Shown here one piece after another: positions 26,690 through 41,370 of a DNA stretch of 64,000 bases (position 1 is its first letter; the number at the start of each line of letters is the position of its first letter). A program made the position numbers and the translations under genes. This stretch comes from a virus: IMG/VR virus record IMGVR_UViG_3300030382_001297, positions 8,518 to 72,517 of that record; one strand, written 5' to 3'. The notes beneath the pieces were generated by a model. That model was given only the letters and a program-made list of their open reading frames with translations, did no database searches and had not been told where the DNA came from.

Positions 26690-27586
26690 TCACTGTATTG
26701 CACGTTCCCTCACACTCTTAGGTATTTGGTCATATGTGCAATCTTCTACGTCCTTATCGTCTCTCCAATGTAAAAACTTAGGGTGTCTTATACTCCCTGA
26801 TGGATACCATGTATTACCTTTAGCCTTAAAGACCTGACCAATATAAACTTCTGGGTTCTTAGTAAAATCCTGTCGCATGGCCTCAGTGAGACCCCCACAG
26901 GTGACATATACTTCTTTATCATAAAATGTTCCAATTACTCCCCCTACTTGTCCCTCATACTTTGTTCCTTCGTCTGCCATCCTAAAGGAATGACATACAT
27001 ATTCTACTTCAACTACTGCTTTCATTCTCGCCCATGCGTTTCGGTGTTGATACTCACTCGTGCTATCTTTAAACACAAGCCCTTCATATGCTTCACCTAT
27101 AACATAGTGGTCCCATAACTCAGGCCACTGATAAGTCTCATATGTCTCTAAAATGTCGAGCCATTCTAATTCTTGTTTACATTGTTCCCAAGCCCATTCC
27201 GAACATAAAGTTCTTTCAGCTAACTCTTTTGATTCAATGTTTTTACCTTCAAATCTCAAGCAATCGAATATATAAAACTCACCATCTATATCTCTTGTGT
27301 GCGCCCAATGGGAACCATACATATATTCTCCCAACAGAACAGAGTCTATTGTTGAATCTGATATAACTCCCTCACTCTTTTTCTTACCTGTTCTTGAGTA
27401 TATAGCCCACTGTCCATTATTTATTATAAGACAACCCCAGATACCATCCATCTTCATTTGAACCATATCGTATTGTATTGGAATCTCCCTATCCTTACGA
27501 TAGATTAACTCTCTAAACTTCGGTCTATCTACTCTTGCTGAATCTATAAACTTCTCATGTGCGGGAAACCCTGTTATATCTTTCAT
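26690..27586 (-). CDS. lig: Minimal ATP-dependent DNA ligase
   Basis: KxDG (KMDG), 'YSRTGK', 'LLGE', 'FYIFD', 'EGLVFK', 'RMK', and OB-fold end 'RHPKF..WR.DK'. Confidence 0.9.
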   Translation of the reverse strand: MKDITGFPAHEKFIDSARVDRPKFRELIYRKDREIPIQYDMVQMKMDGIWGCLIINNGQWAIYSRTGKKKSEGVISDSTIDSVLLGEYMYGSHWAHTRDIDGEFYIFDCLRFEGKNIESKELAERTLCSEWAWEQCKQELEWLDILETYETYQWPELWDHYVIGEAYEGLVFKDSTSEYQHRNAWARMKAVVEVEYVCHSFRMADEGTKYEGQVGGVIGTFYDKEVYVTCGGLTEAMRQDFTKNPEVYIGQVFKAKGNTWYPSGSIRHPKFLHWRDDKDVEDCTYDQIPKSVRERAIQ

Positions 27587-27745
27587 TATTCCTCTAAATA
27601 TCTTCTTACCATTTTTATGCTATCTTTAAGGGATTCATTTTCTGTTGTCTCAGCTACTTCAAAATCCATATCACATAACATATGTAATGCCTTCTTCCTA
27701 TCCATGTATCGAAGAACTACTCCCACTAAATGTAGGGCTTCTCCT

Positions 27746-27973
27746 CTATTGGTGACCATTCGTTTCTCCTATGTCTAATTTCTCTCCGTAAGGTCTCCAC
27801 TCACTATCAGTCTGTTCGTGTCCTTCTATCTGACATTCTGGACAGTAGTGTTCAATATACCTACTATCATATCCATGTCTCCTTTGGGAAGTCATAAGCG
27901 TATTGCATGGTCTCTCATCGAGTGTCTTTCTTTGACATCTCTTATAGTATAGAGGACTTCTCATTGTTCGCAC
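27746..27973 (-). CDS. Small Cys-containing hypothetical protein
   Basis: ORF track. Confidence 0.45.
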   Translation of the reverse strand: MRTMRSPLYYKRCQRKTLDERPCNTLMTSQRRHGYDSRYIEHYCPECQIEGHEQTDSEWRPYGEKLDIGETNGHQ

Positions 27974-28257
27974 CTCTCACATCCGTTCCGGCAACATTCT
28001 TTACTCATGCCTTCTTCTATCTCTGGGTCAGGTTTCCAAATACCTTTAGCCATTATATCTTTCAGCCATTCATCTTGATACCTTAGTGGCATCTCCATAT
28101 ATATAATCTCAGCTATAGTGCTGATACATTCCTCATATTCTTTATATGTTTTGACTAAGCGTGTCTCTTCATTCTCACCACTACCTTCTGCGATAGGGGT
28201 AACCATCTGGTTTTTCTCATACGTTCTACCGTCAGTGTATTCTGTTTTATATGTCAT
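27961..28257 (-). CDS. Hypothetical protein
   Basis: GGAG RBS; Cys-rich C-terminus. Confidence 0.5.
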   Translation of the reverse strand: MTYKTEYTDGRTYEKNQMVTPIAEGSGENEETRLVKTYKEYEECISTIAEIIYMEMPLRYQDEWLKDIMAKGIWKPDPEIEEGMSKECCRNGCERCEQ

Positions 28258-28406
28258 TATTACTCCTGTTTATATTTTCTTGGTCTTAATGTTAATTTCT
28301 TTTTACTAAATCCAAATTTAGTGTCTATCCATACTACTATTTCTCTTATCATTTTTCATTTCTCCATAATGATATTTCAATATATATCAAATATCTATTT
28401 AAAGGT

Positions 28407-29010
28407 TGTGGTAGAGAGAGATATGAACCCAAAACAAAACTGAAAGATATAAAACCGTCATCCTTGTTTATCACTCGCAATGAGCTTACTCCTTGTGTAG
28501 TTATATATCACACTATACTTATCTTAACTACCGCATCGGCTGTTGTGCAGAGGTATAATGTTCTCAGTATATAGTTCAACAGTGACATATGCTTCTCACG
28601 AACTAAAATCGGTCTATGTCTTTCATCCTTATATACCTGCGTTCACAGTTGGTAAGCATATATGTTCATGCTCATTATGTCCTTCTAACGGACAGTGAAC
28701 TACCACATGACTCAGTGACTCTACTTCTTCTGTCGTGAACGCTTTGATAGGTCTCGCTTGACGTATAGGCATGCCATCTCTCAAGATGGACGCACTCCTA
28801 TACTTGGTTCTCTTATGTGTAGCACCATAACTGCTACCACACCTATCTCATAGTGTTTCTGTCCTAACTCCCCGCTTAGGGTAATGACGCTATTATGATT
28901 AAGCGTATGGGCTTTGTTATCACTATGTATCTCATAGAGCTTGCTTGATTAGCTCAATCACTCTATGTTTCTCAGCGACTTTTGGGCGTATGATTCAGGT
29001 CTCTACCACA
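28407..29010 (-). ncRNA. Candidate large ornate non-coding RNA (~604 nt)
   Basis: No ORF of 60 aa or more. Perfect 11-bp terminal stem (28407-28417/29000-29010) plus at least 10 nested internal helices. Strand inferred from flanking genes. Confidence 0.7.
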
Positions 29011-29017
29011 TTTAGTG

Positions 29018-29085
29018 GGATAGGAGCTTCGAGAGGTAAAATGAGCCAAACAACTGTTAAGAAATAAGGTTTGAAACTCCTATCC
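29018..29085 (-). ncRNA. Candidate 68-nt stem-loop small RNA
   Basis: 13-bp terminal stem with one G-U pair that forms only on the minus strand; pyrimidine-rich loop. Confidence 0.5.
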
Positions 29086-29199
29086 TATCACCTTAGGTTT
29101 AAAACTTTAGGAACATCCACATCCATATCATAGTAAAGAATGCTATAAGTATATACCATTCAGCTTCTTGTATGTCTCGTGGATTACTCCATAATTCTT

Positions 29200-29727
29200 T
29201 TAGTCTTTTATATATTCTCCTGTATGTATCTTTATGCATTGTTGCTTTCCTCTATCATATGCTTCGAGATGTCCTCTGTAAAAATCCCATGCATCTCTAT
29301 TAGCATATAATTTCTTCTTATCATAAGTAGTGGCATAGTAACTCTTTGACTTACTTGCCTCCCAATCATCTTTCTTTAGGTTTTTCCCAGCGATAAAAAA
29401 CTCAGGAGTATTATCAGTTCTCAGTATCCAATGGAGGAATATAAAATATCCTTCCCTCTTACTGTAAGTTCCACTGAACCACGTTTCTCCTGATGTTGTC
29501 TTTATCTCTACTGGATGACCACCCAAACGTATGTCTGGTTCAGCATCTATCTTTGGTGCTACGGCATCCTCTATCAATTCAGCCATAGCATTTTCAAGTA
29601 GTCCACTTATATCTTCTGACTTTTGTTTCTTAGTTTTAAAGAGACTCTTCTTATCATAGAAGTCAAACAACTCTTTAGTATCGCTTGTCAATCTCTCTAT
29701 CACTGCTTTGTTTATGATTTCCTTCAT
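29200..29727 (-). CDS. PD-(D/E)XK restriction-endonuclease-like protein
   Basis: 'EPDIRL....VEIKTT'. Confidence 0.6.
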   Translation of the reverse strand: MKEIINKAVIERLTSDTKELFDFYDKKSLFKTKKQKSEDISGLLENAMAELIEDAVAPKIDAEPDIRLGGHPVEIKTTSGETWFSGTYSKREGYFIFLHWILRTDNTPEFFIAGKNLKKDDWEASKSKSYYATTYDKKKLYANRDAWDFYRGHLEAYDRGKQQCIKIHTGEYIKD

Positions 29728-29991
29728 CTATACTGTGCCTCCTATTCTCACGTAGCAAATCTGACAATAGGGGTTTCCGCTTGTATCTCTATACCTGATA
29801 TACTCTAATGCTAATCTACATTTACACGTATTACAATTACTCATCCGTCATCTCCATCTCTTCGCATTCCCAGTCATATATTGCTTGGTCTATCTCACTC
29901 CAAACTTCTTTAGGCATAGGGACATCAACTTCATTATCATCTTCATCATAGAAGACTATCTTATAAGATATAATCTTTTGCTTATAATCCT

Positions 29992-32136
29992 TCATACTTT
30001 TATAACCCTCCTGATTATCTTTGATACTGCTGGCGCAAGGTTATCTATATTACTAACCATTATATGGTTGTTAAACATCTTTTGTTGTGCATACTTATCT
30101 GCTCCGCTTATTCCTACTTGAATAATTGACCATCCTTTACCTTCTAAATGATTTACTACCTTTCGCACGTGACTCATACCATCATAACCACCATATCCAG
30201 ACGCAGCCGGCTGACCGTCGGAGTATATAATCATAAGCTTGTTAGACATAGGCTGTGAAGATTCTTTACTAACTCTTTCAGCCGCCGCCCATATAGCCAT
30301 ACCATCTCTATTTTCATATCGAGCTATCATAGCTCCCATAGCCATAGGTCTATCTTTCATATTCGGCCCCCAATATTCAGTCATATTGGTCGAACCACAA
30401 TCTGTATGCCATCCAGCTTCACCATCAGCAGTATGACCAAATACCCATAAGTCTAATTTGGGATTATCCTGTAAAGCTTCTTTCGTAGCGATAGCTGACT
30501 GTCGAGCCATCTCCATCTTCCACGAACCCATACTACCTGATTCATCTACCAATATACAAATGTCTAATGGTTTATCATCTTCAATTATATCATTCTTAAA
30601 CAAATCCTTACGACCTAATGGTATTCTGTGAAGCATACGCTTATCTATCTTACCACGCTTCTGATTACGGATAGTATGTTTTTGTGTATTACCATATAAA
30701 TCTATCTTACGCTTGAGTGAATTACTTATCTTCTTCATATTTTTAGATTCTGCCTTATATTTAACTCTTTGACCTTCAGTAGGTCGAGCTTTACGCCAAG
30801 TGATTTTCTTTTGGTTCTTGTATATAAGACCAACCTCAGTCATCTCAGTTTCCATATAGTCACTATCTTCAAGTTCTTCTATCTCTTTTGATATTTCATC
30901 GGCTAATGCACTACTCTTAGCATCTAACGTATAGTCTACTGCTTCTTCAAGTTCCCTCATCCCATCTGAGTCTTTCATTAGCTTACGAACATCAGACATA
31001 CGACTTCTTTTACGTTCTATGTCTTTCTTAATTGAATCCTTTATGGATTCCCACTGTTCATCAGTTAATAAATCACCATCAGTCATAGACTTTTTGAGTT
31101 TGTCCATCTCTTTCTCGATATCTTTCTTCATATCCTCGCCGGAGCCTTTATCTTTAACCATCTTTTCGGCTACTGCTTTAAGATAATGGAATAGTGCTTC
31201 TATACATTCAAAGGTATTTTCTCTACTATCCAATCCATTCTTTAACGCACGTGCAAAAAATCTTATATGCTTTCCGTGACGCTTTCTGCGAGTGTCGCCC
31301 ATATGTTCCGGCCATCTAATGAAAGCTAATAGAGTATTCAGTATATCCATAAATGGATTATCTTCTATCATTTCTAATTTAGTTTCCATCTTCTCCTTGA
31401 AAAAGTGTTTCTTAACTTCAGAAATATATGTCACAAACCCAGCGTTATCTTTAGCTAACTGCTTTTCTATGTATTCATCTTCTACTGAATTAGCGATAGT
31501 ATGTAGTAATGTTCCTTCATATGTATCTTTTACTAATTCTGTTGCTTTCCTCTTTTCCCATCTATATAATGGTTTACTATGAATGAGGTGTAACTTTTCG
31601 TGTATAGCTAATCCTGCTGTTATATCTAAATTGTCATCACTCTTCTTTAGTAGAGACCCATCTATGCGTATGAGTCCTCTTTCTAAATCAGAATAGTTCT
31701 GACCTTCATAATTGTAATCTAACTTATGCGATACTGTTGGGTCTACAACTTTACATAGAGAATCTAAATGTCTCTTATGTTTCAGTAATCTGGTCGCATC
31801 ATCTTTATCAGCGTGGGAACTACCCCAACTACCCCACATACTTGACGTAGAGCCTGTGGATTGTCCTTGCCACCAGCCACCACCACCCCAAGTATAGGAA
31901 CTACTACGGTTCCACATATCTCCGGTGGAAGATATAACGGGTGAATCTTTTATCGCAACTTTTGCTGTTGAAGCAGTAGTGAATCTATCATCATAATCTA
32001 ATGGAGTTTCACATATAGGACATTTATCCTCATGCGTAGCTTCTATCCATTTACTACAATCATAGCAGTAATCATCATCTGATACGCCTGTCCACTTATC
32101 TATATCGGTGTGGTGTGGTTCGTGTTTAATAACCAT
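29992..32136 (-). CDS. VWA-domain protein (CobT-like partner of MoxR AAA+) with HExxH motif and N-terminal Zn finger
   Basis: MIDAS 'LVDESGSMG', 'SDGQP', 'HEKLH', CxxC...CxxC. Confidence 0.8.
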   Translation of the reverse strand: MVIKHEPHHTDIDKWTGVSDDDYCYDCSKWIEATHEDKCPICETPLDYDDRFTTASTAKVAIKDSPVISSTGDMWNRSSSYTWGGGGWWQGQSTGSTSSMWGSWGSSHADKDDATRLLKHKRHLDSLCKVVDPTVSHKLDYNYEGQNYSDLERGLIRIDGSLLKKSDDNLDITAGLAIHEKLHLIHSKPLYRWEKRKATELVKDTYEGTLLHTIANSVEDEYIEKQLAKDNAGFVTYISEVKKHFFKEKMETKLEMIEDNPFMDILNTLLAFIRWPEHMGDTRRKRHGKHIRFFARALKNGLDSRENTFECIEALFHYLKAVAEKMVKDKGSGEDMKKDIEKEMDKLKKSMTDGDLLTDEQWESIKDSIKKDIERKRSRMSDVRKLMKDSDGMRELEEAVDYTLDAKSSALADEISKEIEELEDSDYMETEMTEVGLIYKNQKKITWRKARPTEGQRVKYKAESKNMKKISNSLKRKIDLYGNTQKHTIRNQKRGKIDKRMLHRIPLGRKDLFKNDIIEDDKPLDICILVDESGSMGSWKMEMARQSAIATKEALQDNPKLDLWVFGHTADGEAGWHTDCGSTNMTEYWGPNMKDRPMAMGAMIARYENRDGMAIWAAAERVSKESSQPMSNKLMIIYSDGQPAASGYGGYDGMSHVRKVVNHLEGKGWSIIQVGISGADKYAQQKMFNNHIMVSNIDNLAPAVSKIIRRVIKV

Positions 32137-32497: not shown

Positions 32498-33802
32498 TTA
32501 ATCACCCATTGATTGTATTGCTTGAATAACTTTAACTCTATCAGTGTCGTCACCAGCAGTTATAGGATAGAATGGTAAGCAAGTATGCTTAAGTGCATCA
32601 AGCAAAGTCATACCATCTACTACTAATTCACCTACTGACAAACACATACGAGTAGAAACAGCTACGTTTAACTCTTCTGCTTTATATAAATCTCTAATCT
32701 TCTTAGCAAATTCAGTTATACGCCTTGCGTCATCATCTTCGAGATGTGGAACACGATTCTGTAATAGTTCCTGTTCTTTATTCTGTGGTAGGTAATCTAA
32801 TTCGTATATACCTCCAGTGAATCTATCCTTCCAAGCTCTATCTAAGTCGTTGGCCGCCCCAAGATATTCTCTACCTATGTTAGCAGTAGCGAAGAAGAAT
32901 ACGTTAGTATCTAACTTAACTATGTCTGCGTCATCACTTTCGTCTAACGCTAAGTATCTTTGACCATCTAACACAGGCATAAGTATATTACCTAAGTCGC
33001 CTGTCCTATCTCTTGTCACTTCGTCAAGCATAATGAATGCTCCACTGTTATCTTCTAAGGCTGATACGAAACGAGATGGCTTAAACCACGTTCCATCCTC
33101 TTGATTATACTTTGTGTCTCCTAATAGCTTTGCCGCCGGATTCATAGTATCCCCAAAATTGAACTGATGGAATGGTTTGTTAGTTATCTCTGCCAATATC
33201 TTACCTAAAGATGACTTACCGCAACCGGATGGCCCTGTCACAAGTATATACTTATTCCTAAAGATGTTGCGTAGCATAGTATAAAATGTCATACTATCTG
33301 CGAACTTAAACTCTTCAGGTATAGCTACGCTTGACTTAAGCTTTCCTATCACACTGTCATCAATAACAGGTATAATAGGTTCTTCTTTTATTGCTTCAGC
33401 CATAAAATCATCTACGGCTGTCTCCCTATCATCTCGCATAGCGTCACCGCTTTCTATATCCTCATCCAATACTGAATGGTCTGGACTATCTCCTATATCT
33501 TCTATCGGAGTCTCATGCCCTATGGCATCTTCTGCTGGCTCGGATGACTCAGGATATCCTCCTACGTCATCTCTATATGTCTCTTCTGACTTCATTTTTT
33601 TTACCTCTTTATGTATATCTTCGAGTTCTACCTCTAATCTTGATATCATTTTGTTGTATTCTTCGAGAGCTTCGTGGTCTATCACAGGCTCTCCCATAAC
33701 TTTATCTTTGCATTCATTCATGAAACGTAGCTTATCTTCTACTTTTACTTGCTTAGTTGTTAGTTCACCTAATTTAGCGAACTTCTCACTTCTACTACTC
33801 AT
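32498..33802 (-). CDS. MoxR/CbbQ/CobS-like AAA+ ATPase
   Basis: GPSGCGKS, 'MLDEVTR', 'ATAN', 'LDRAWKDRF', 'STR'. Confidence 0.87.
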   Translation of the reverse strand: MSSRSEKFAKLGELTTKQVKVEDKLRFMNECKDKVMGEPVIDHEALEEYNKMISRLEVELEDIHKEVKKMKSEETYRDDVGGYPESSEPAEDAIGHETPIEDIGDSPDHSVLDEDIESGDAMRDDRETAVDDFMAEAIKEEPIIPVIDDSVIGKLKSSVAIPEEFKFADSMTFYTMLRNIFRNKYILVTGPSGCGKSSLGKILAEITNKPFHQFNFGDTMNPAAKLLGDTKYNQEDGTWFKPSRFVSALEDNSGAFIMLDEVTRDRTGDLGNILMPVLDGQRYLALDESDDADIVKLDTNVFFFATANIGREYLGAANDLDRAWKDRFTGGIYELDYLPQNKEQELLQNRVPHLEDDDARRITEFAKKIRDLYKAEELNVAVSTRMCLSVGELVVDGMTLLDALKHTCLPFYPITAGDDTDRVKVIQAIQSMGD

Positions 33803-37926: not shown

Positions 37927-38109
37927 TTAGTATTCTCCATTATCTTCCCAATCGTAATTTAACTCGAATTTTTCATTCTGTCCACAGGTGCAATTATCGT
38001 AAATCCAATCGCAACCGTCTGCGTGTTGGTTTTCTTCGTGCGTTGCTCCGCTGTTTTCGTATTGAAAGGCCATTTCATCTGTTAGATTTTGTAATAAGGT
38101 TTTTCTCAT
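37927..38109 (-). CDS. Small acidic hypothetical protein
   Basis: GAGGT RBS; H..C....C.C motif. Confidence 0.55.
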   Translation of the reverse strand: MRKTLLQNLTDEMAFQYENSGATHEENQHADGCDWIYDNCTCGQNEKFELNYDWEDNGEY

Positions 38110-38252
38110 TTTGCGACCTCTTTATCAAGTCCCAACTTTTGGGCCTCTATTGCCTCGTAAATTTCGAGGGTGTGACTCATCGGTAATTTAAACCGACGGC
38201 TGGCTTTCCTGAAACGGAATTCGTTTCTTAAAATGTTTTCTTTGAAGCTCAT
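38106..38252 (-). CDS. 48-aa micro-protein (not in ORF track)
   Basis: MSFKENILRNEFRFRKASRRFKLPMSHTLEIYEAIEAQKLGLDKEVAK; directly after a composite promoter, ATGA-coupled to the next ORF. Confidence 0.6.
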   Translation of the reverse strand: MSFKENILRNEFRFRKASRRFKLPMSHTLEIYEAIEAQKLGLDKEVAK

Positions 38253-38283
38253 TTTTTCTCTCTAATTCTACTCTAACGAGAGA

Positions 38284-38359
38284 GTATTTAAGGGTTTGGG
38301 TCATTTTAGTATATAAGTATCGAGGGGGTATATATAGTCCGTTTTAGGTTCCGCTCGCA
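38284..38359 (-). promoter_or_regulatory. Composite promoter copy 2
   Basis: Boxes at 38284, 38309 and 38328, CCGCTC at 38351. Confidence 0.75.
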
Positions 38360-38376
38360 CTTTTTCGCGCATGTCC

Positions 38377-38511
38377 TTAAAAGGAATATACAATCTCACA
38401 GTCAAAACAAAACTGTGCGTCTGGTAGTTTTGTAAATGGGTTATCCTTTTGGTAACCGTCTACTAATTCTCTTTTACATTCTTGGCAATTCTTATATCGT
38501 CCGTGTTTCAT
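38377..38511 (-). CDS. 44-aa Zn-ribbon micro-protein (not in ORF track)
   Basis: MKHGRYKNCQECKRELVDGYQKDNPFTKLPDAQFCFDCEIVYSF; AAGGTA RBS; TATA box at ~38545. Confidence 0.6.
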   Translation of the reverse strand: MKHGRYKNCQECKRELVDGYQKDNPFTKLPDAQFCFDCEIVYSF

Positions 38512-38572
38512 ATTTTACCTTATATTACCTATAACGAGGGAGGTTATAAAGGTTTGCACATGTCCAAAGTTT

Positions 38573-39070
38573 TTAATACCGCTGGCCTAAGAGCGCCACA
38601 TTAATGACTGAGCTTAGGCCTTGAGTATAAGGTTTAGGGGTGTAGGTCGTGAGAACCCACTCGCACTAACCACGGGATTACAACCGCGTGCCTCCGGAAG
38701 GCCTATAAATTTTGTGCTTCGCCATTCTTGTCAAGCGCCCCTATTTTTATACTGGGGTATTAATCCAGTCTTAAAACAAATATCAGAACGACAACGCTAA
38801 AGTATACGTCTTAGCGTCTGTGAACTTCCTACTCATTAATAAGTATAAGGTGTGAGGGAGGATTCAAGGTTAACCTCCAAAGACTACCGGCCCAAATACC
38901 TAAGTATTGTCCGCACTTACCACTCACCACCCTCTCACGCATTTGCGCATTGAGGCAGGTTTGTGTGCCTTACCCCCTTTGGGAAGGGGTTATTCAGCCA
39001 CTCACGATAACGGGATATCTCCCATTAATATAAGGTGTTGGGTCGGGATTCGGCCCCTGAAACCCAACAC
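38573..39070 (-). ncRNA. Hairpin-dense ORF-poor region; candidate structured RNA(s)
   Basis: About 10 stems in 500 nt, GC richer than flanks. Most wobble pairs favour the minus strand. Confidence 0.5.
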
Positions 39071-39109
39071 GGGATATTGTATTTTTAATTACAGTTTAAT
39101 TCTGTTTGC

Positions 39110-39193
39110 TTACTTTGACCATCGGCTTGACTTTGTCGAAGTTGGAATACGTCCAATCTTAAGCCAAAGCTTCTGAATTCGTGTTAGTTTCAT
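39110..39193 (-). CDS. 27-aa basic micro-peptide (not in ORF track)
   Basis: MKLTRIQKLWLKIGRIPTSTKSSRWSK with AGAGGTAAAA leader, downstream of a composite promoter. Confidence 0.5.
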   Translation of the reverse strand: MKLTRIQKLWLKIGRIPTSTKSSRWSK

Positions 39194-39228
39194 TGTTCTT
39201 TTACCTCTAACTTACTTGTAGCGAGAGA

Positions 39229-39304
39229 GTATTTAAAGCTTTGCCTCAAAATAGTATATAAGACACGAGGAGACTTATATAGTGCGTTTTGGGTTCCGCT
39301 CACT
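39229..39304 (-). promoter_or_regulatory. Composite promoter copy 3
   Basis: Boxes at 39229, 39254 and 39273, CCGCTCACT at 39296. Confidence 0.75.
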
Positions 39305-39656
39305 GTTTTTGAAAAAATTTGGACATGTCGATTTTAAAAATTAAATATAAAATCTTTGGCGTCCCAGCTTTCTGGTGCCTCTTGGTCTGATAGACCAATG
39401 GCATCCGCTACCTGTTGCTCTCTAATTGGACAGTTACCAAAATAAACCTCCATCGCTAAGGATAGGATGAAATCAGTCCAATTTAAATTATTGTGGTTGC
39501 TCATTCTTTACCTCGTATTATACTAAACAGTTCTGCTAATACGTCGTCGTAATATTCCACATCGTTAGGACTGCGGACGTTCCACGTATTAAGTTTACTA
39601 ATATCGTATCTTAAGGAGTCTATCGCTACCAATAGCTCTGTTGTAGTGAAAGCCAT

Positions 39657-39929
39657 TTAAGCACCTCTCTTATAAATTTCTTTGTTAGGATAGGCCACGA
39701 ATCTGGCCCCTACGCTATTAATAACGTCCCAAACTTCAGCGTCGTTAAGACTACCGTGTTTAGTTCCAAAAGAGTGGAGATTAACCCAGCCTATTGTGTG
39801 GCAATAGGTAGAGTTTGGCCCCTCCATTCGGGAACCCATTAGTTCCACCCAAAAATTGTGGATACTCATCAATCGACCATCCCAGTCGACGAAGCCAGTT
39901 TTATTTGTTGTATAAGTTGTTTTATTCAT
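39657..39929 (-). CDS. Hypothetical protein
   Basis: AGAGGTAAAAGAATG leader; own composite promoter. Confidence 0.65.
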   Translation of the reverse strand: MNKTTYTTNKTGFVDWDGRLMSIHNFWVELMGSRMEGPNSTYCHTIGWVNLHSFGTKHGSLNDAEVWDVINSVGARFVAYPNKEIYKRGA

Positions 39930-39961
39930 TCTTTTACCTCTATTATTACTGTAGCGAGAGA

Positions 39962-40037
39962 GTATTTAAGGGTTTGGGTCATTTTAGTATATAAGGCACG
40001 AGGGAGTATATATAGTGCGATATACGTCCCGCTAACG
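39962..40037 (-). promoter_or_regulatory. Composite promoter copy 4
   Basis: Boxes at 39962, 39987 and 40006, CCGCTAAC at 40029. Confidence 0.75.
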
Positions 40038-40060
40038 TTTTTTTAAAAATTTGCATGTCT

Positions 40061-40431
40061 GGGTATACCCCCCCTACCCCATGGGGGTATCTCTTCTAGA
40101 GAGGATAGCTATATATAGTGGGTATATAAGGGTGGGGGGTCATTTATATATAGGGGGTATATAAGACAAGTGCCACCCCCCCATGCATGTGTTGACATGT
40201 ACATGATTAGACATGTCCCGGTTTTGGGATTGGCTGATGATTAACATTATAATATTAAATAGAAAGTCTACTTAGTATTACCATTACTTCTGTTAAATAT
40301 TTTTGGTATTCGTCCATTACTTAGTGTCACCCCTTAGTTGTTTTTTTGATTTTTTTATTTGTTTATCGAGCATCTTTTCCAATTTTTCTAAAATTTCCAT
40401 TGGGTCTGCGGTGGGGTATACCCCCCCTACC
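40061..40431. repeat. 18-bp direct repeat GGGTATACCCCCCCTACC (40061-40078, 40414-40431) with GGGTAT and CATG clusters between
   Basis: Exact repeat read from the sequence. Confidence 0.65.
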
Positions 40432-40448
40432 TCTATTAAACGCATTGA

Positions 40449-40586
40449 TTACCTCTTATTCCAAGTGGAGTATCGGGTAGGTGTGTCCCTACGGCTGGTC
40501 TGCTTCCAGATTTGGGTTGCCACGATGCGAGCTATAAGGGCCCTGTTGTGGTTATCTACTTGCTGTTGTGTTGGTGTAGTTGTCAT
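40449..40586 (-). CDS. 45-aa micro-protein (true start at internal ATG 40586 of track ORF 40449..40790)
   Basis: AGAGGTAAAAGAAATG leader, with a composite promoter immediately upstream. Confidence 0.6.
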   Translation of the reverse strand: MTTTPTQQQVDNHNRALIARIVATQIWKQTSRRDTPTRYSTWNKR

Positions 40587-40619
40587 TTCTTTTACCTCTA
40601 TATTACTTATAGCAACCAA

Positions 40620-40695
40620 GTATATAAGGCTATCGCTGGTTTTAGTATATAAGGAAGGAGGAAGTATATATAGTGCAATATAGCGTCCGCTCACT
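40620..40695 (-). promoter_or_regulatory. Composite promoter copy 5
   Basis: Boxes at 40620, 40645 and 40664, CCGCTCACT at 40687. Confidence 0.75.
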
Positions 40696-40947
40696 ATTTT
40701 TATTATATTTTTATCTTGCTGCGCGGATGGCCCCCGGTCTAAAAAATCGCATGCCCACCTGTGCTTAACGTCGTGTAGGGGTACAAACAAATCGTCTGAA
40801 TTTTGAAAGTAGTAGTTCTACATAGTAAGAGCTATATAGATATATTATATAGAGTAAGCATTTCAGGACAGGCATTAGTGTCTATATGTCATGTTAACAG
40901 AAAGTTTTATATACTAATGTGGTCTTAGTAGTTTCAGTGAAAAAATT

Positions 40948-41370
40948 ATGACGAAAAAAACACGCAATAATATCAAGTGGACATGTAATGAAATACGTGA
41001 TTTACTATTAAGCAAGAATGAAGCTTATGGTGATTCAGCGTTAAGTCCAGAAAATATTTTTAGTAAGCTCGATTCAGCACAGGCCATCTGTGCACGTATC
41101 GATGATAAACTCAGTCGTATTGCGAACATTGGGCTCGATGATGCAACTGAAGATACTTTGGACGATTTGATAGGATATCTTATCCTGCTCAAAATCGCGA
41201 GGAGCGAAGCGGCAGCTAATGTGACTGTATTTACCACGTGTAATTGTGTACATGGGTGTACAGTATGTGGACCGACATGTGAATGCGTATGCAATGAAGA
41301 GGATGGATATGCTCCACCATGGAGCCACGAAGTTCCGAAGGAAGTGAGAGTATTTACGAGCAATGCTTAA
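40948..41370 (+). CDS. DUF1599/nucleotide-modification-associated-domain-like protein with Cys-rich tail
   Basis: 'KN.AYGDSA......F.......I..RIDDKL.RI.......EDTL.DLIGY.IL'; tail CNCVHGCTVCGPTCECVC. Confidence 0.65.
   Translation: MTKKTRNNIKWTCNEIRDLLLSKNEAYGDSALSPENIFSKLDSAQAICARIDDKLSRIANIGLDDATEDTLDDLIGYLILLKIARSEAAANVTVFTTCNCVHGCTVCGPTCECVCNEEDGYAPPWSHEVPKEVRVFTSNA

Follow-up and report, generated by a model that had tools for sequence, protein, structure and literature searches.

A conserved viral stem-loop carrying an unpaired complement of translation start regions at the 5' edge of a large structured RNA

The stretch of DNA analysed here, called the window throughout, comprises 64,000 nucleotides (bases 8518-72517 of the 72.5-kb IMG/VR record IMGVR_UViG_3300030382_001297) and comes from an uncultured marine tailed virus. 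We are concerned with a hairpin encoded on its minus strand and with the large structured RNA to which this hairpin is attached. The gene just upstream of the hairpin (29727-29200, minus strand) encodes a protein of 175 aa and usually lies next to the RNA module; the protein has no Pfam match, and its invariant columns read P-D...E-x-K, presumably the pattern of a PD-(D/E)xK nuclease. The end of this gene is overlapped by a small open reading frame (ORF) at 29099-29239 on the minus strand, which leaves 14 nt between its stop and the extended hairpin region and ends in a hydrophobic stretch, MIWMWMFLKF, that close relatives also keep. Hairpin and RNA consist of the following parts.

29089..29092, minus strand: 5' strand GGUG of the basal helix, which pairs with CACU at 29017-29014 in the minimum-free-energy fold and covaries
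29086..29088, minus strand: 3-nt bulge AUA on the 5' side, AWA or ACA across all aligned homologues
29073..29085, minus strand: 5' arm of the main stem, GGAUAGGAGUUUC, from the fold and from covariation in 30 sequences
29046..29072, minus strand: loop segment differing in length and sequence among homologues, which may contain a small apical sub-hairpin
29033..29045, minus strand: invariant unpaired motif CUCAUUUUACCUC, from conserved columns and motif-blind detection
29018..29030, minus strand: 3' arm of the main stem, GAAGCUCCUAUCC, from fold and covariation
29014..29017, minus strand: 3' strand CACU of the basal helix, from fold and covariation
29010..29013, minus strand: 4-nt linker AAAU between hairpin and large RNA, from sequence and alignment
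29000..29009, minus strand: 5' strand of the terminal helix of the large RNA, GUGGUAGAGA, with an exact reverse-complement copy at 28408-28417
28408..28417, minus strand: 3' strand of the terminal helix, UCUCUACCAC, covarying in 12 homologues
28408..29009, minus strand: ORF-free structured RNA of 602 nt, attached to the hairpin

An initial annotation of the window had described a 68-nt hairpin at 29018-29085, acting as a separate small RNA (sRNA). Its 13-bp main stem (GGAUAGGAGUUUC/GAAGCUCCUAUCC), which closes a 42-nt loop on the minus strand, is present as described, including one U·G pair that becomes a C·A mismatch on the plus strand. The hairpin itself is larger than 29018-29085, however, since its full span of 29092-29014 makes it a bulged domain of 79 nt. 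The folding energy is -22 kcal/mol (z = -2.6), and the plus strand taken as a single sequence folds about equally well, so that the strand can be decided only by comparison with relatives.

These relatives were gathered by way of the nuclease-like protein, of which 93 homologues were found in metagenomes. An alignment of 34 of them served to retrieve 80 loci from metagenomes and 27 from viruses, and in many of these a generic hairpin finder, ignorant of the loop, picked out this hairpin again on the downstream side of the nuclease gene. To these were added L048, which came from a scan for the loop pattern, four loci that lie upstream of the nuclease gene, and 7 loci for which the generic finder was applied to BLAST hits of the large RNA's body. 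The resulting alignment holds 30 distinct sequences; it omits L063, L065, L071, L131, L139 and L141, which are identical or nearly identical to rows that were kept, and the truncated L094, while L091, L103, L115 and L116 have the hairpin or the motif and stand outside it. Scanning viral contigs for the stem pattern returned 7 loci, the sole homologous one being an already known contig, and an exact 21-mer scan returned this same contig and nothing else. The loop-pattern scan gave 51 loci, two of them homologous (L003 and L048), the others being ordinary gene starts read in antisense. The ligase of the virus, used as a query for relatives, gave no result. In species genomes, the only relative of the nuclease is found in a metagenome-assembled genome of Porticoccaceae, with 50% identity.

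Comparison of the 30 sequences leaves little doubt about the structure. Over 16 pairs, 479 of the 480 cells form a standard pair: the 12 outer pairs of the main stem are paired in every cell, with double-sided changes in 8 of the 12, and the basal helix is paired in 119 of its 120 cells, occurring in the variants GGUG/CACU, AGUG/CACU, GGUG/CACC and GGGG/CCCU. Altogether 9 of the 16 pairs show compensatory changes on both sides, and the covariation score is 0.427 versus 0.214 in shuffles, none of the 500 shuffles reaching the observed value. When one arm was slid by 1-3 columns as a control, merely 38-58% of the cells remained paired. A total of 64 of the 480 cells are G·U or U·G, none of which the opposite strand could form, and we thus conclude that the fold belongs to a minus-strand RNA, as the initial annotation had held.

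The basal helix also accounts for the flank AAGGUGAUA, which resembles a Shine-Dalgarno (SD) sequence. A pseudoknot or an SD role for this 5' flank was considered and rejected, as this flank supplies the 5' side of the basal helix, pairing with CACU and showing compensatory changes. A mini-hairpin CCAC/GUGG after the stem was likewise dropped: it is broken in 2 of 19 sequences by changes that are compensatory in the basal helix, and its GUGG is part of the terminal helix of the large RNA.

Within this framework, one stretch of the loop does not vary. Of 108 related loci searched with a detector based on flank and stem features alone, the loop sequence being unused, 35 have the hairpin, and in 35 of 35 of these hairpins the loop contains an unpaired CUCAU-N(2-6)-ACCUC. 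The motif occurs in 4 further loci whose hairpins are truncated or were missed by the flank pattern of the detector. Across the 30 aligned rows the columns of CTCA and TTTACCTC never change, while the other parts of the loop differ both in length and in sequence; CAU and ACCUC are separated by one of five spacers (UU, UUU, AUUU, AUUUU and UGUUUU), and the motif lies outside all conserved helices. Loss of the loop sequence had been named in the initial annotation as a result that would speak against a function in pairing; what we find is that this sequence is the constant part of the loop. The motif CUCAUUUUACCUC of the window complements GAGGU-AAA-AUGAG and hence an SD sequence, an A-rich spacer, a start codon and the letters AG.

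In most sequences the motif stands directly 5' of the 3' arm of the main stem and 3' of a small apical sub-hairpin; a permissive search allows such a sub-hairpin, with at least 4 bp and an end 0-2 nt ahead of CUCAU, to be drawn for 23 of 23 sequences. One clade (L090, L092, L096, L099, L104, L112 and L142) is built differently: here the motif lies 5' of another sub-hairpin, which has a conserved CCACGAGA loop and covarying arms. That the same motif is left unpaired in two architectures is, in our view, the strongest sign that the sequence itself is under selection. The 3' arm of the apex sub-hairpin always begins with AUG (L090 4906-4995, L104 4809-4895, L112 4729-4818, L092 2239-2329 and L142 2924-3010). 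In L104 an arm of the sub-hairpin, GGCUCA, duplicates the start of the motif, and an alternative pairing is therefore possible there.

The hairpin does not stand alone. Only 4 nt separate its basal helix from the terminal helix of the 602-nt RNA (28408-29009), a region with no long ORF; the distance of 7 nt between stem and large RNA given initially is close, although the terminal helix, starting at 29009, begins 8 nt past the 13-bp stem. The terminal helix covaries among 12 homologues, reading GUGGUAGAAA/UUUCUACCAC in L067, GUGGUAAGG/CCUUACCAC in L139 and GUGGUGAAG/CUUCACCAC in L143, with a U·G pair in L124, L125 and L077. On the far side, the CCTTTAAATA box of the next gene follows the terminal helix after 2 nt in the window and after 2-3 nt in relatives. 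Hairpin and large RNA also change place as one unit, which is found downstream of the nuclease gene in some clades, about 1.2-1.5 kb upstream of that gene in one clade and beyond the ligase gene in another. Adjacency to a covarying terminal helix and this joint movement indicate that the hairpin is a domain at the 5' edge of the large RNA, and not the separate 68-nt sRNA that had been proposed.

In relatives the large RNA measures 288-613 nt, with conserved blocks alternating with variable inserts. No consistent partner site for the hairpin loop was found inside the large RNA in 11 homologues, and the loop is thus probably free. We also considered that the large RNA might present several anti-AUG loops and rejected this idea, as UCAU occurs in just 7 of 117 predicted hairpin loops across 12 RNAs. 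A recurrent UAAUCAUUAU loop is seen on one or two hairpins per large RNA in several relatives. None of 4227 Rfam models matches 28400-29100 at gathering scores, and at E <= 10 the region 27500-30000 yields sub-threshold U6 and snoZ43 hits only, elsewhere in the ORF-free region. With 35 loci and a clear secondary-structure core, hairpin and large RNA together are a new, well-delimited viral RNA family, which appears to be undescribed in the sources searched.

Which mRNAs could the loop meet? In this virus, GAGG is found upstream of ATG in 29 of 75 crude gene calls (AGAGG in 15, GGAGG in 10), at a distance of 3-11 nt, and the second codon most often begins with AG (13 of 75). With SD-led starts and AG second codons being this common, the loop complements an idealised start region of this virus. 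We computed duplex energies between the loop of each of three genomes and positions -18 to +8 around the first ATG of that genome's own ORFs of at least 80 aa, a crude set which includes false starts, with random windows as the control and Mann-Whitney p values.

G000, 82 starts: mean -7.95 versus random -5.42 kcal/mol, p 2e-11; 26% versus 6.8% at or below -10
G001, 66 starts: mean -8.76 versus random -5.90 kcal/mol, p 2e-11; 35% versus 9% at or below -10
G002, 79 starts: mean -9.08 versus random -5.50 kcal/mol, p 2e-16; 37% versus 7.5% at or below -10

In every one of the three genomes, 30 of 30 shuffled loops paired more weakly than the real one. The preference for AGAGG or GGAGG starts in each genome showed no clear relation to its loop type.

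The initial annotation had singled out the leaders of a group of early micro-genes as the partners of the loop, and the matches it reported are indeed there. The loop contains CUCAUUUUACCUCUC, the complement of which, AGAGGTAAAA, occurs in 5 copies in the window versus 0.22 expected, a number that 0 of 100 shuffles reach; one copy is simply the plus strand of the loop itself (29032-29041). The other four are the following.

39932-39941, minus strand: candidate leader AGAGGUAAAA, before the ATG at 39929
39199-39208, minus strand: candidate leader, sister copy, before the ATG at 39193
40590-40599, minus strand: candidate leader, sister copy, before the ATG at 40586
33599-33608, minus strand: fourth copy of the 10-mer, upstream of an ATG

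The partial matches that had been noted at 38511 (the 9-mer AGGTAAAAT) and at 39504 (GAGGTAAA, a GA bulge, then ATGAGC) are present as well, and GAGGTAAAA leaders with matches of 9-11 nt lie on the hairpin-RNA strand in G001 (18804, 21761 and 22184) and in G002 (75296, an 11-mer, 75704 and 76131). The three main leaders are copies of one promoter-leader cassette of about 110 nt (38100-41000, read on the minus strand), and they therefore represent one match repeated rather than three independent ones. There are four cassette copies, the fourth of which, before the ATG at 38252, reads GAGAGAAAAAAUGAGC. In the region 38250-40700 (minus strand) the cassettes share a layout of two or three TATA-like boxes (CTATATATAC, CTTATATACT, CTTAAATACT), followed by CTCTCGCTAC and then by the SD sequence; each precedes a micro-gene of 27-90 codons, and the same cassette is found in G001. 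Between the micro-genes, at 40000-40450 (minus strand), lie several G/C-rich near-palindromes of the GGGGGGTATACCCC type, and similar GGGGGTATATAA elements occur in G001 and G002. The AGAGGTAAAA copy followed by an ATG at 33590-33608 (minus strand) lies inside the ORF of a 434-aa AAA ATPase (32498-33802), out of frame with it, and could mark an overlapping gene or a mis-called start.

Based on these comparisons of sequence, we suggest that the hairpin may be a module, borne by a large structured viral RNA, that exposes a sequence for pairing with translation start regions; we favour this reading while giving it somewhat less than an even chance. The stem-loop would form the 5' domain of the RNA of about 600 nt, built from a 4-bp helix, a 3-nt bulge and a stem of 13-15 bp, and its apical region would present CUCAU, 2-6 mostly U residues and ACCUC in single-stranded form. 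This module could then anneal in trans to the SD and start-codon region of mRNAs, which might be viral or host ones, and the annealing would block or modulate binding of the 30S subunit, with repression as a possible outcome. We further speculate, as a rather improbable extension, that the hairpin might serve as a head with which an abundant viral RNA of about 690 nt captures mRNAs; it would imitate the 30S initiation site, setting the anti-SD tail of 16S rRNA beside the initiator anticodon for a wholesale seizure of SD-led start regions.

Several observations weigh against pairing with start regions. The loop spacer is 2-6 nt, compared with the 3-11 nt that follow GAGG in real starts, and a duplex spanning both SD and AUG would thus usually need a bulge. 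In the genome-wide duplex scan no single target stands out, and the best duplexes in trans (-19 to -22 kcal/mol) contain large internal loops, versus -39 for the perfect antisense of the loop itself. A module that pairs with start regions in general would also strike the virus's own genes. No covariation between loop and leaders was found: in G001 the complement of the loop reads GGAGG while the leaders keep AGAGG, a 9-bp match being retained. Finally, contigs from RNA libraries cover 28462-29005 in four metatranscriptome runs from three studies, and those of relatives extend 71-101 nt into the 3' arm of the hairpin, but as these contigs are unstranded and DNA carry-over is possible, they attest presence in RNA libraries rather than prove a transcript. 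The contigs identical to the window come from a single sample and end at 28998, short of the hairpin. Neither 27000-28400 nor 29106-29400 is covered by such a contig, an absence to which we attach no weight.

The absence of loop-leader covariation also bears on the narrower proposal of the initial annotation, a stand-alone sRNA that specifically shuts off the early micro-genes through their AGAGGUAAAA/GAGGUAAAA leaders (ATGs 39193, 39929 and 40586), possibly with the help of a viral Lsm protein. The 10-nt perfect matches to three leaders and the fourth 10-mer at 33599, together with the matching leaders of G001 and G002, speak for it, as does the arrangement of the genes, for the leaders head a leftward gene block and the hairpin follows about 10 kb downstream on the same strand, which would fit a delayed shut-off. 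We nevertheless consider it doubtful. The three leaders belong to one repeated cassette; the 39929 leader holds rank 7 of the 82 starts by duplex energy, and the A/U-rich 10-bp duplex leaves the AGAGGUAAAA leaders outside the 14 best hits of the genome-wide scan. The early leaders are not privileged targets, and the loop complements viral starts generally. The AUG of these leaders lies 5-8 nt after the 10-mer, and CUCAU could reach it only across a bulge of at least 2-3 nt, which leaves the invariance of CUCAU unexplained; the hairpin, moreover, is joined to the large RNA. As for the Lsm protein, a search of the whole 72.5-kb record with Pfam PF01423 gave no match at E <= 1, while control genomes responded, although an Sm fold that has diverged very far could escape this search. 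A decoy or docking site in place of an antisense seed is, to our mind, unlikely, though less so than the narrower proposal: the loop would mimic the tail of 16S rRNA (ACCUCC) and the anticodon loop of initiator tRNA (CUCAU) and bind a protein that recognises those RNAs, or it would bind a U-tract binder such as Hfq or Sm, or take part in a contact of the large RNA, tertiary or intermolecular. Two invariant half-sites at a spacing of 2-6 nt suit recognition as separate elements better than a continuous duplex, and the large RNA of which the hairpin forms a domain is modular. In addition, loops of the L143 type read GUUGGCUCA...ACCUCCUUA, which we take to resemble the GUUGGAUCACCUCCUUA end of bacterial 16S rRNA. 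Against this, the GUUGG in question is explained as the 3' arm of the apical sub-hairpin, the likeness to rRNA and tRNA is a putative one, no candidate protein emerged (the Lsm search being negative), and the large RNA offers no consistent partner.

The remaining explanations concern the position of the hairpin and the opposite strand. The hairpin is always bordered by the stop codon of an upstream ORF, at a distance of 12-20 nt, on one side and by the large RNA's terminal helix on the other; flank and 5' arm hold stop codons in all three frames (TAA GGTGATAGGATAG), and hairpin and RNA shift together relative to neighbouring genes. This constancy would be expected of a boundary, processing or stability element, one that ends upstream translation and transcripts or that protects or defines the 5' end of the large RNA, and the likeness of the loop to an anti-start site would then be of secondary importance. 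For such a task, however, the stem alone would suffice, and an invariant unpaired sequence of 13-16 nt in two architectures would have no explanation. The region 28200-29400 contains no terminator-like site and no U tract follows the stem on its 3' side; the 42-nt loop and the CACUAAAUG that comes after the stem do not fit an intrinsic terminator either. A K-turn or a bulge-helix-bulge at the 3-nt bulge was rejected, the sequence having no tandem G·A pairs and no second bulge, as was translational bypass at GGA-UAG, for which the reading frames are incompatible. A scan for sigma-70-type promoters was uninformative (5 sites versus 4.8 expected). We regard a role mainly in boundary formation or stability as quite unlikely. 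Least credible of all is that the conserved letters are the ribosome-binding site and start codon of a plus-strand micro-ORF (MSQTTVKK in the window). It is true that every homologue shows GAGGT and then ATGAG on that strand and that codon 2 alternates between AGC and AGT, both serine. But among 19 homologues the length of the frame ranges between 4 and more than 34 codons, with nothing shared past MS(Q/H/K), and it is only 3 codons in the L104 clade, from which we conclude that it is not a gene; the spacing between SD and ATG is as short as 2-3 nt, the stem would hold 64 C·A mismatches on the plus strand, and the large ORFs of the surrounding block (10 to 35 kb) are encoded by the minus strand.

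The rest of the window places the RNA in its viral context. The genes include those for TerL, a portal protein, an HK97-type capsid protein, PolB, a class II ribonucleotide reductase, an ATP-dependent ligase, RecU, and a CbbQ-type AAA ATPase together with its VWA/CobT partner; the PolB shares only about 22% identity with those of named phages, and a DNA-level search of a phage collection gave no match. ARAGORN found no tRNA or tmRNA in the whole window. A related 81-kb virus carries a tRNA-Glu (UUC) at L173 14849-14924 (minus strand; G002 74849-74924), and the virus of the window has none. The Rfam manA RNA (RF01745) is detected at 38847-39027 (minus strand), among the early micro-genes, as a borderline hit (55.4 bits versus a cut-off of 55.2), and clearly in the related virus G002 (72.6 bits; L173 12159-12341, plus strand, corresponding to G002 72159-72341). 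Members of the manA family occur in marine bacteria and in phages infecting them, a point of relevance to the host. The magroviruses are a group of viruses of Marine Group II (MGII), the host assumed in the initial annotation, for which our analysis provides no support. In the magrovirus literature covered by our term searches, the terms non-coding RNA, small RNA and Lsm are absent, and the SD term is absent from part of these texts.

Regulatory RNAs of uncultured marine viruses are almost unknown, and the RNA family described here stands even if the function we propose for it is wrong. Should the more speculative imitation of a 30S initiation site hold, the virus would possess a device made of RNA only with which to shut off or re-program translation.

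Among known RNAs, GOLLD and ROOL offer one comparison: these are ornate non-coding RNAs of several hundred nucleotides and unknown function from viruses of uncultured or marine microbes. They share with the present RNA its large size and its association with phages, whereas the latter matches no Rfam model. RNAIII of S. aureus, an RNA of about 500 nt with multiple hairpins, shows anti-SD sequences in its loops to several mRNAs, and the likeness lies in a large RNA that presents an anti-SD sequence in a hairpin loop. RNAIII is cellular and controlled by quorum sensing, however, and carries UCCC loops on several hairpins, while here a single hairpin bears a motif that also covers the start codon; the two RNAs have no sequence or Rfam relationship.

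The c4 antisense RNA from the immunity region of phages P1 and P7, which is cut from the same transcript as its target, is a precedent for the way in which the hairpin would work. According to PMC12197685, the loops of c4 pair around the ribosome-binding site and block translation. Like the present RNA, c4 is a structured RNA made by a virus, and its loops match the ribosome-binding region of an mRNA whose gene lies at another place in the phage genome. The differences are that c4 has about 77 nt and defined targets (icd/ant), whereas the hairpin is a domain of an RNA of about 600 nt and complements a generic start region. Prophage DicF, P22 sar and lambda OOP are further phage-encoded RNAs that repress translation by pairing with mRNA (PMC12197685). 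All three are short and have one or a few specific targets, sar and OOP overlapping their target genes, and none is joined to a large structured RNA or carries a generic complement of SD and AUG. A functional parallel may instead be found in a protein. RegA of phage T4 represses many early mRNAs by occupying their translation start regions, and if pairing with start regions is indeed what the hairpin does, it would do the same job as RNA, as an unusually general module against start sites and as an RNA counterpart of protein repressors like RegA.

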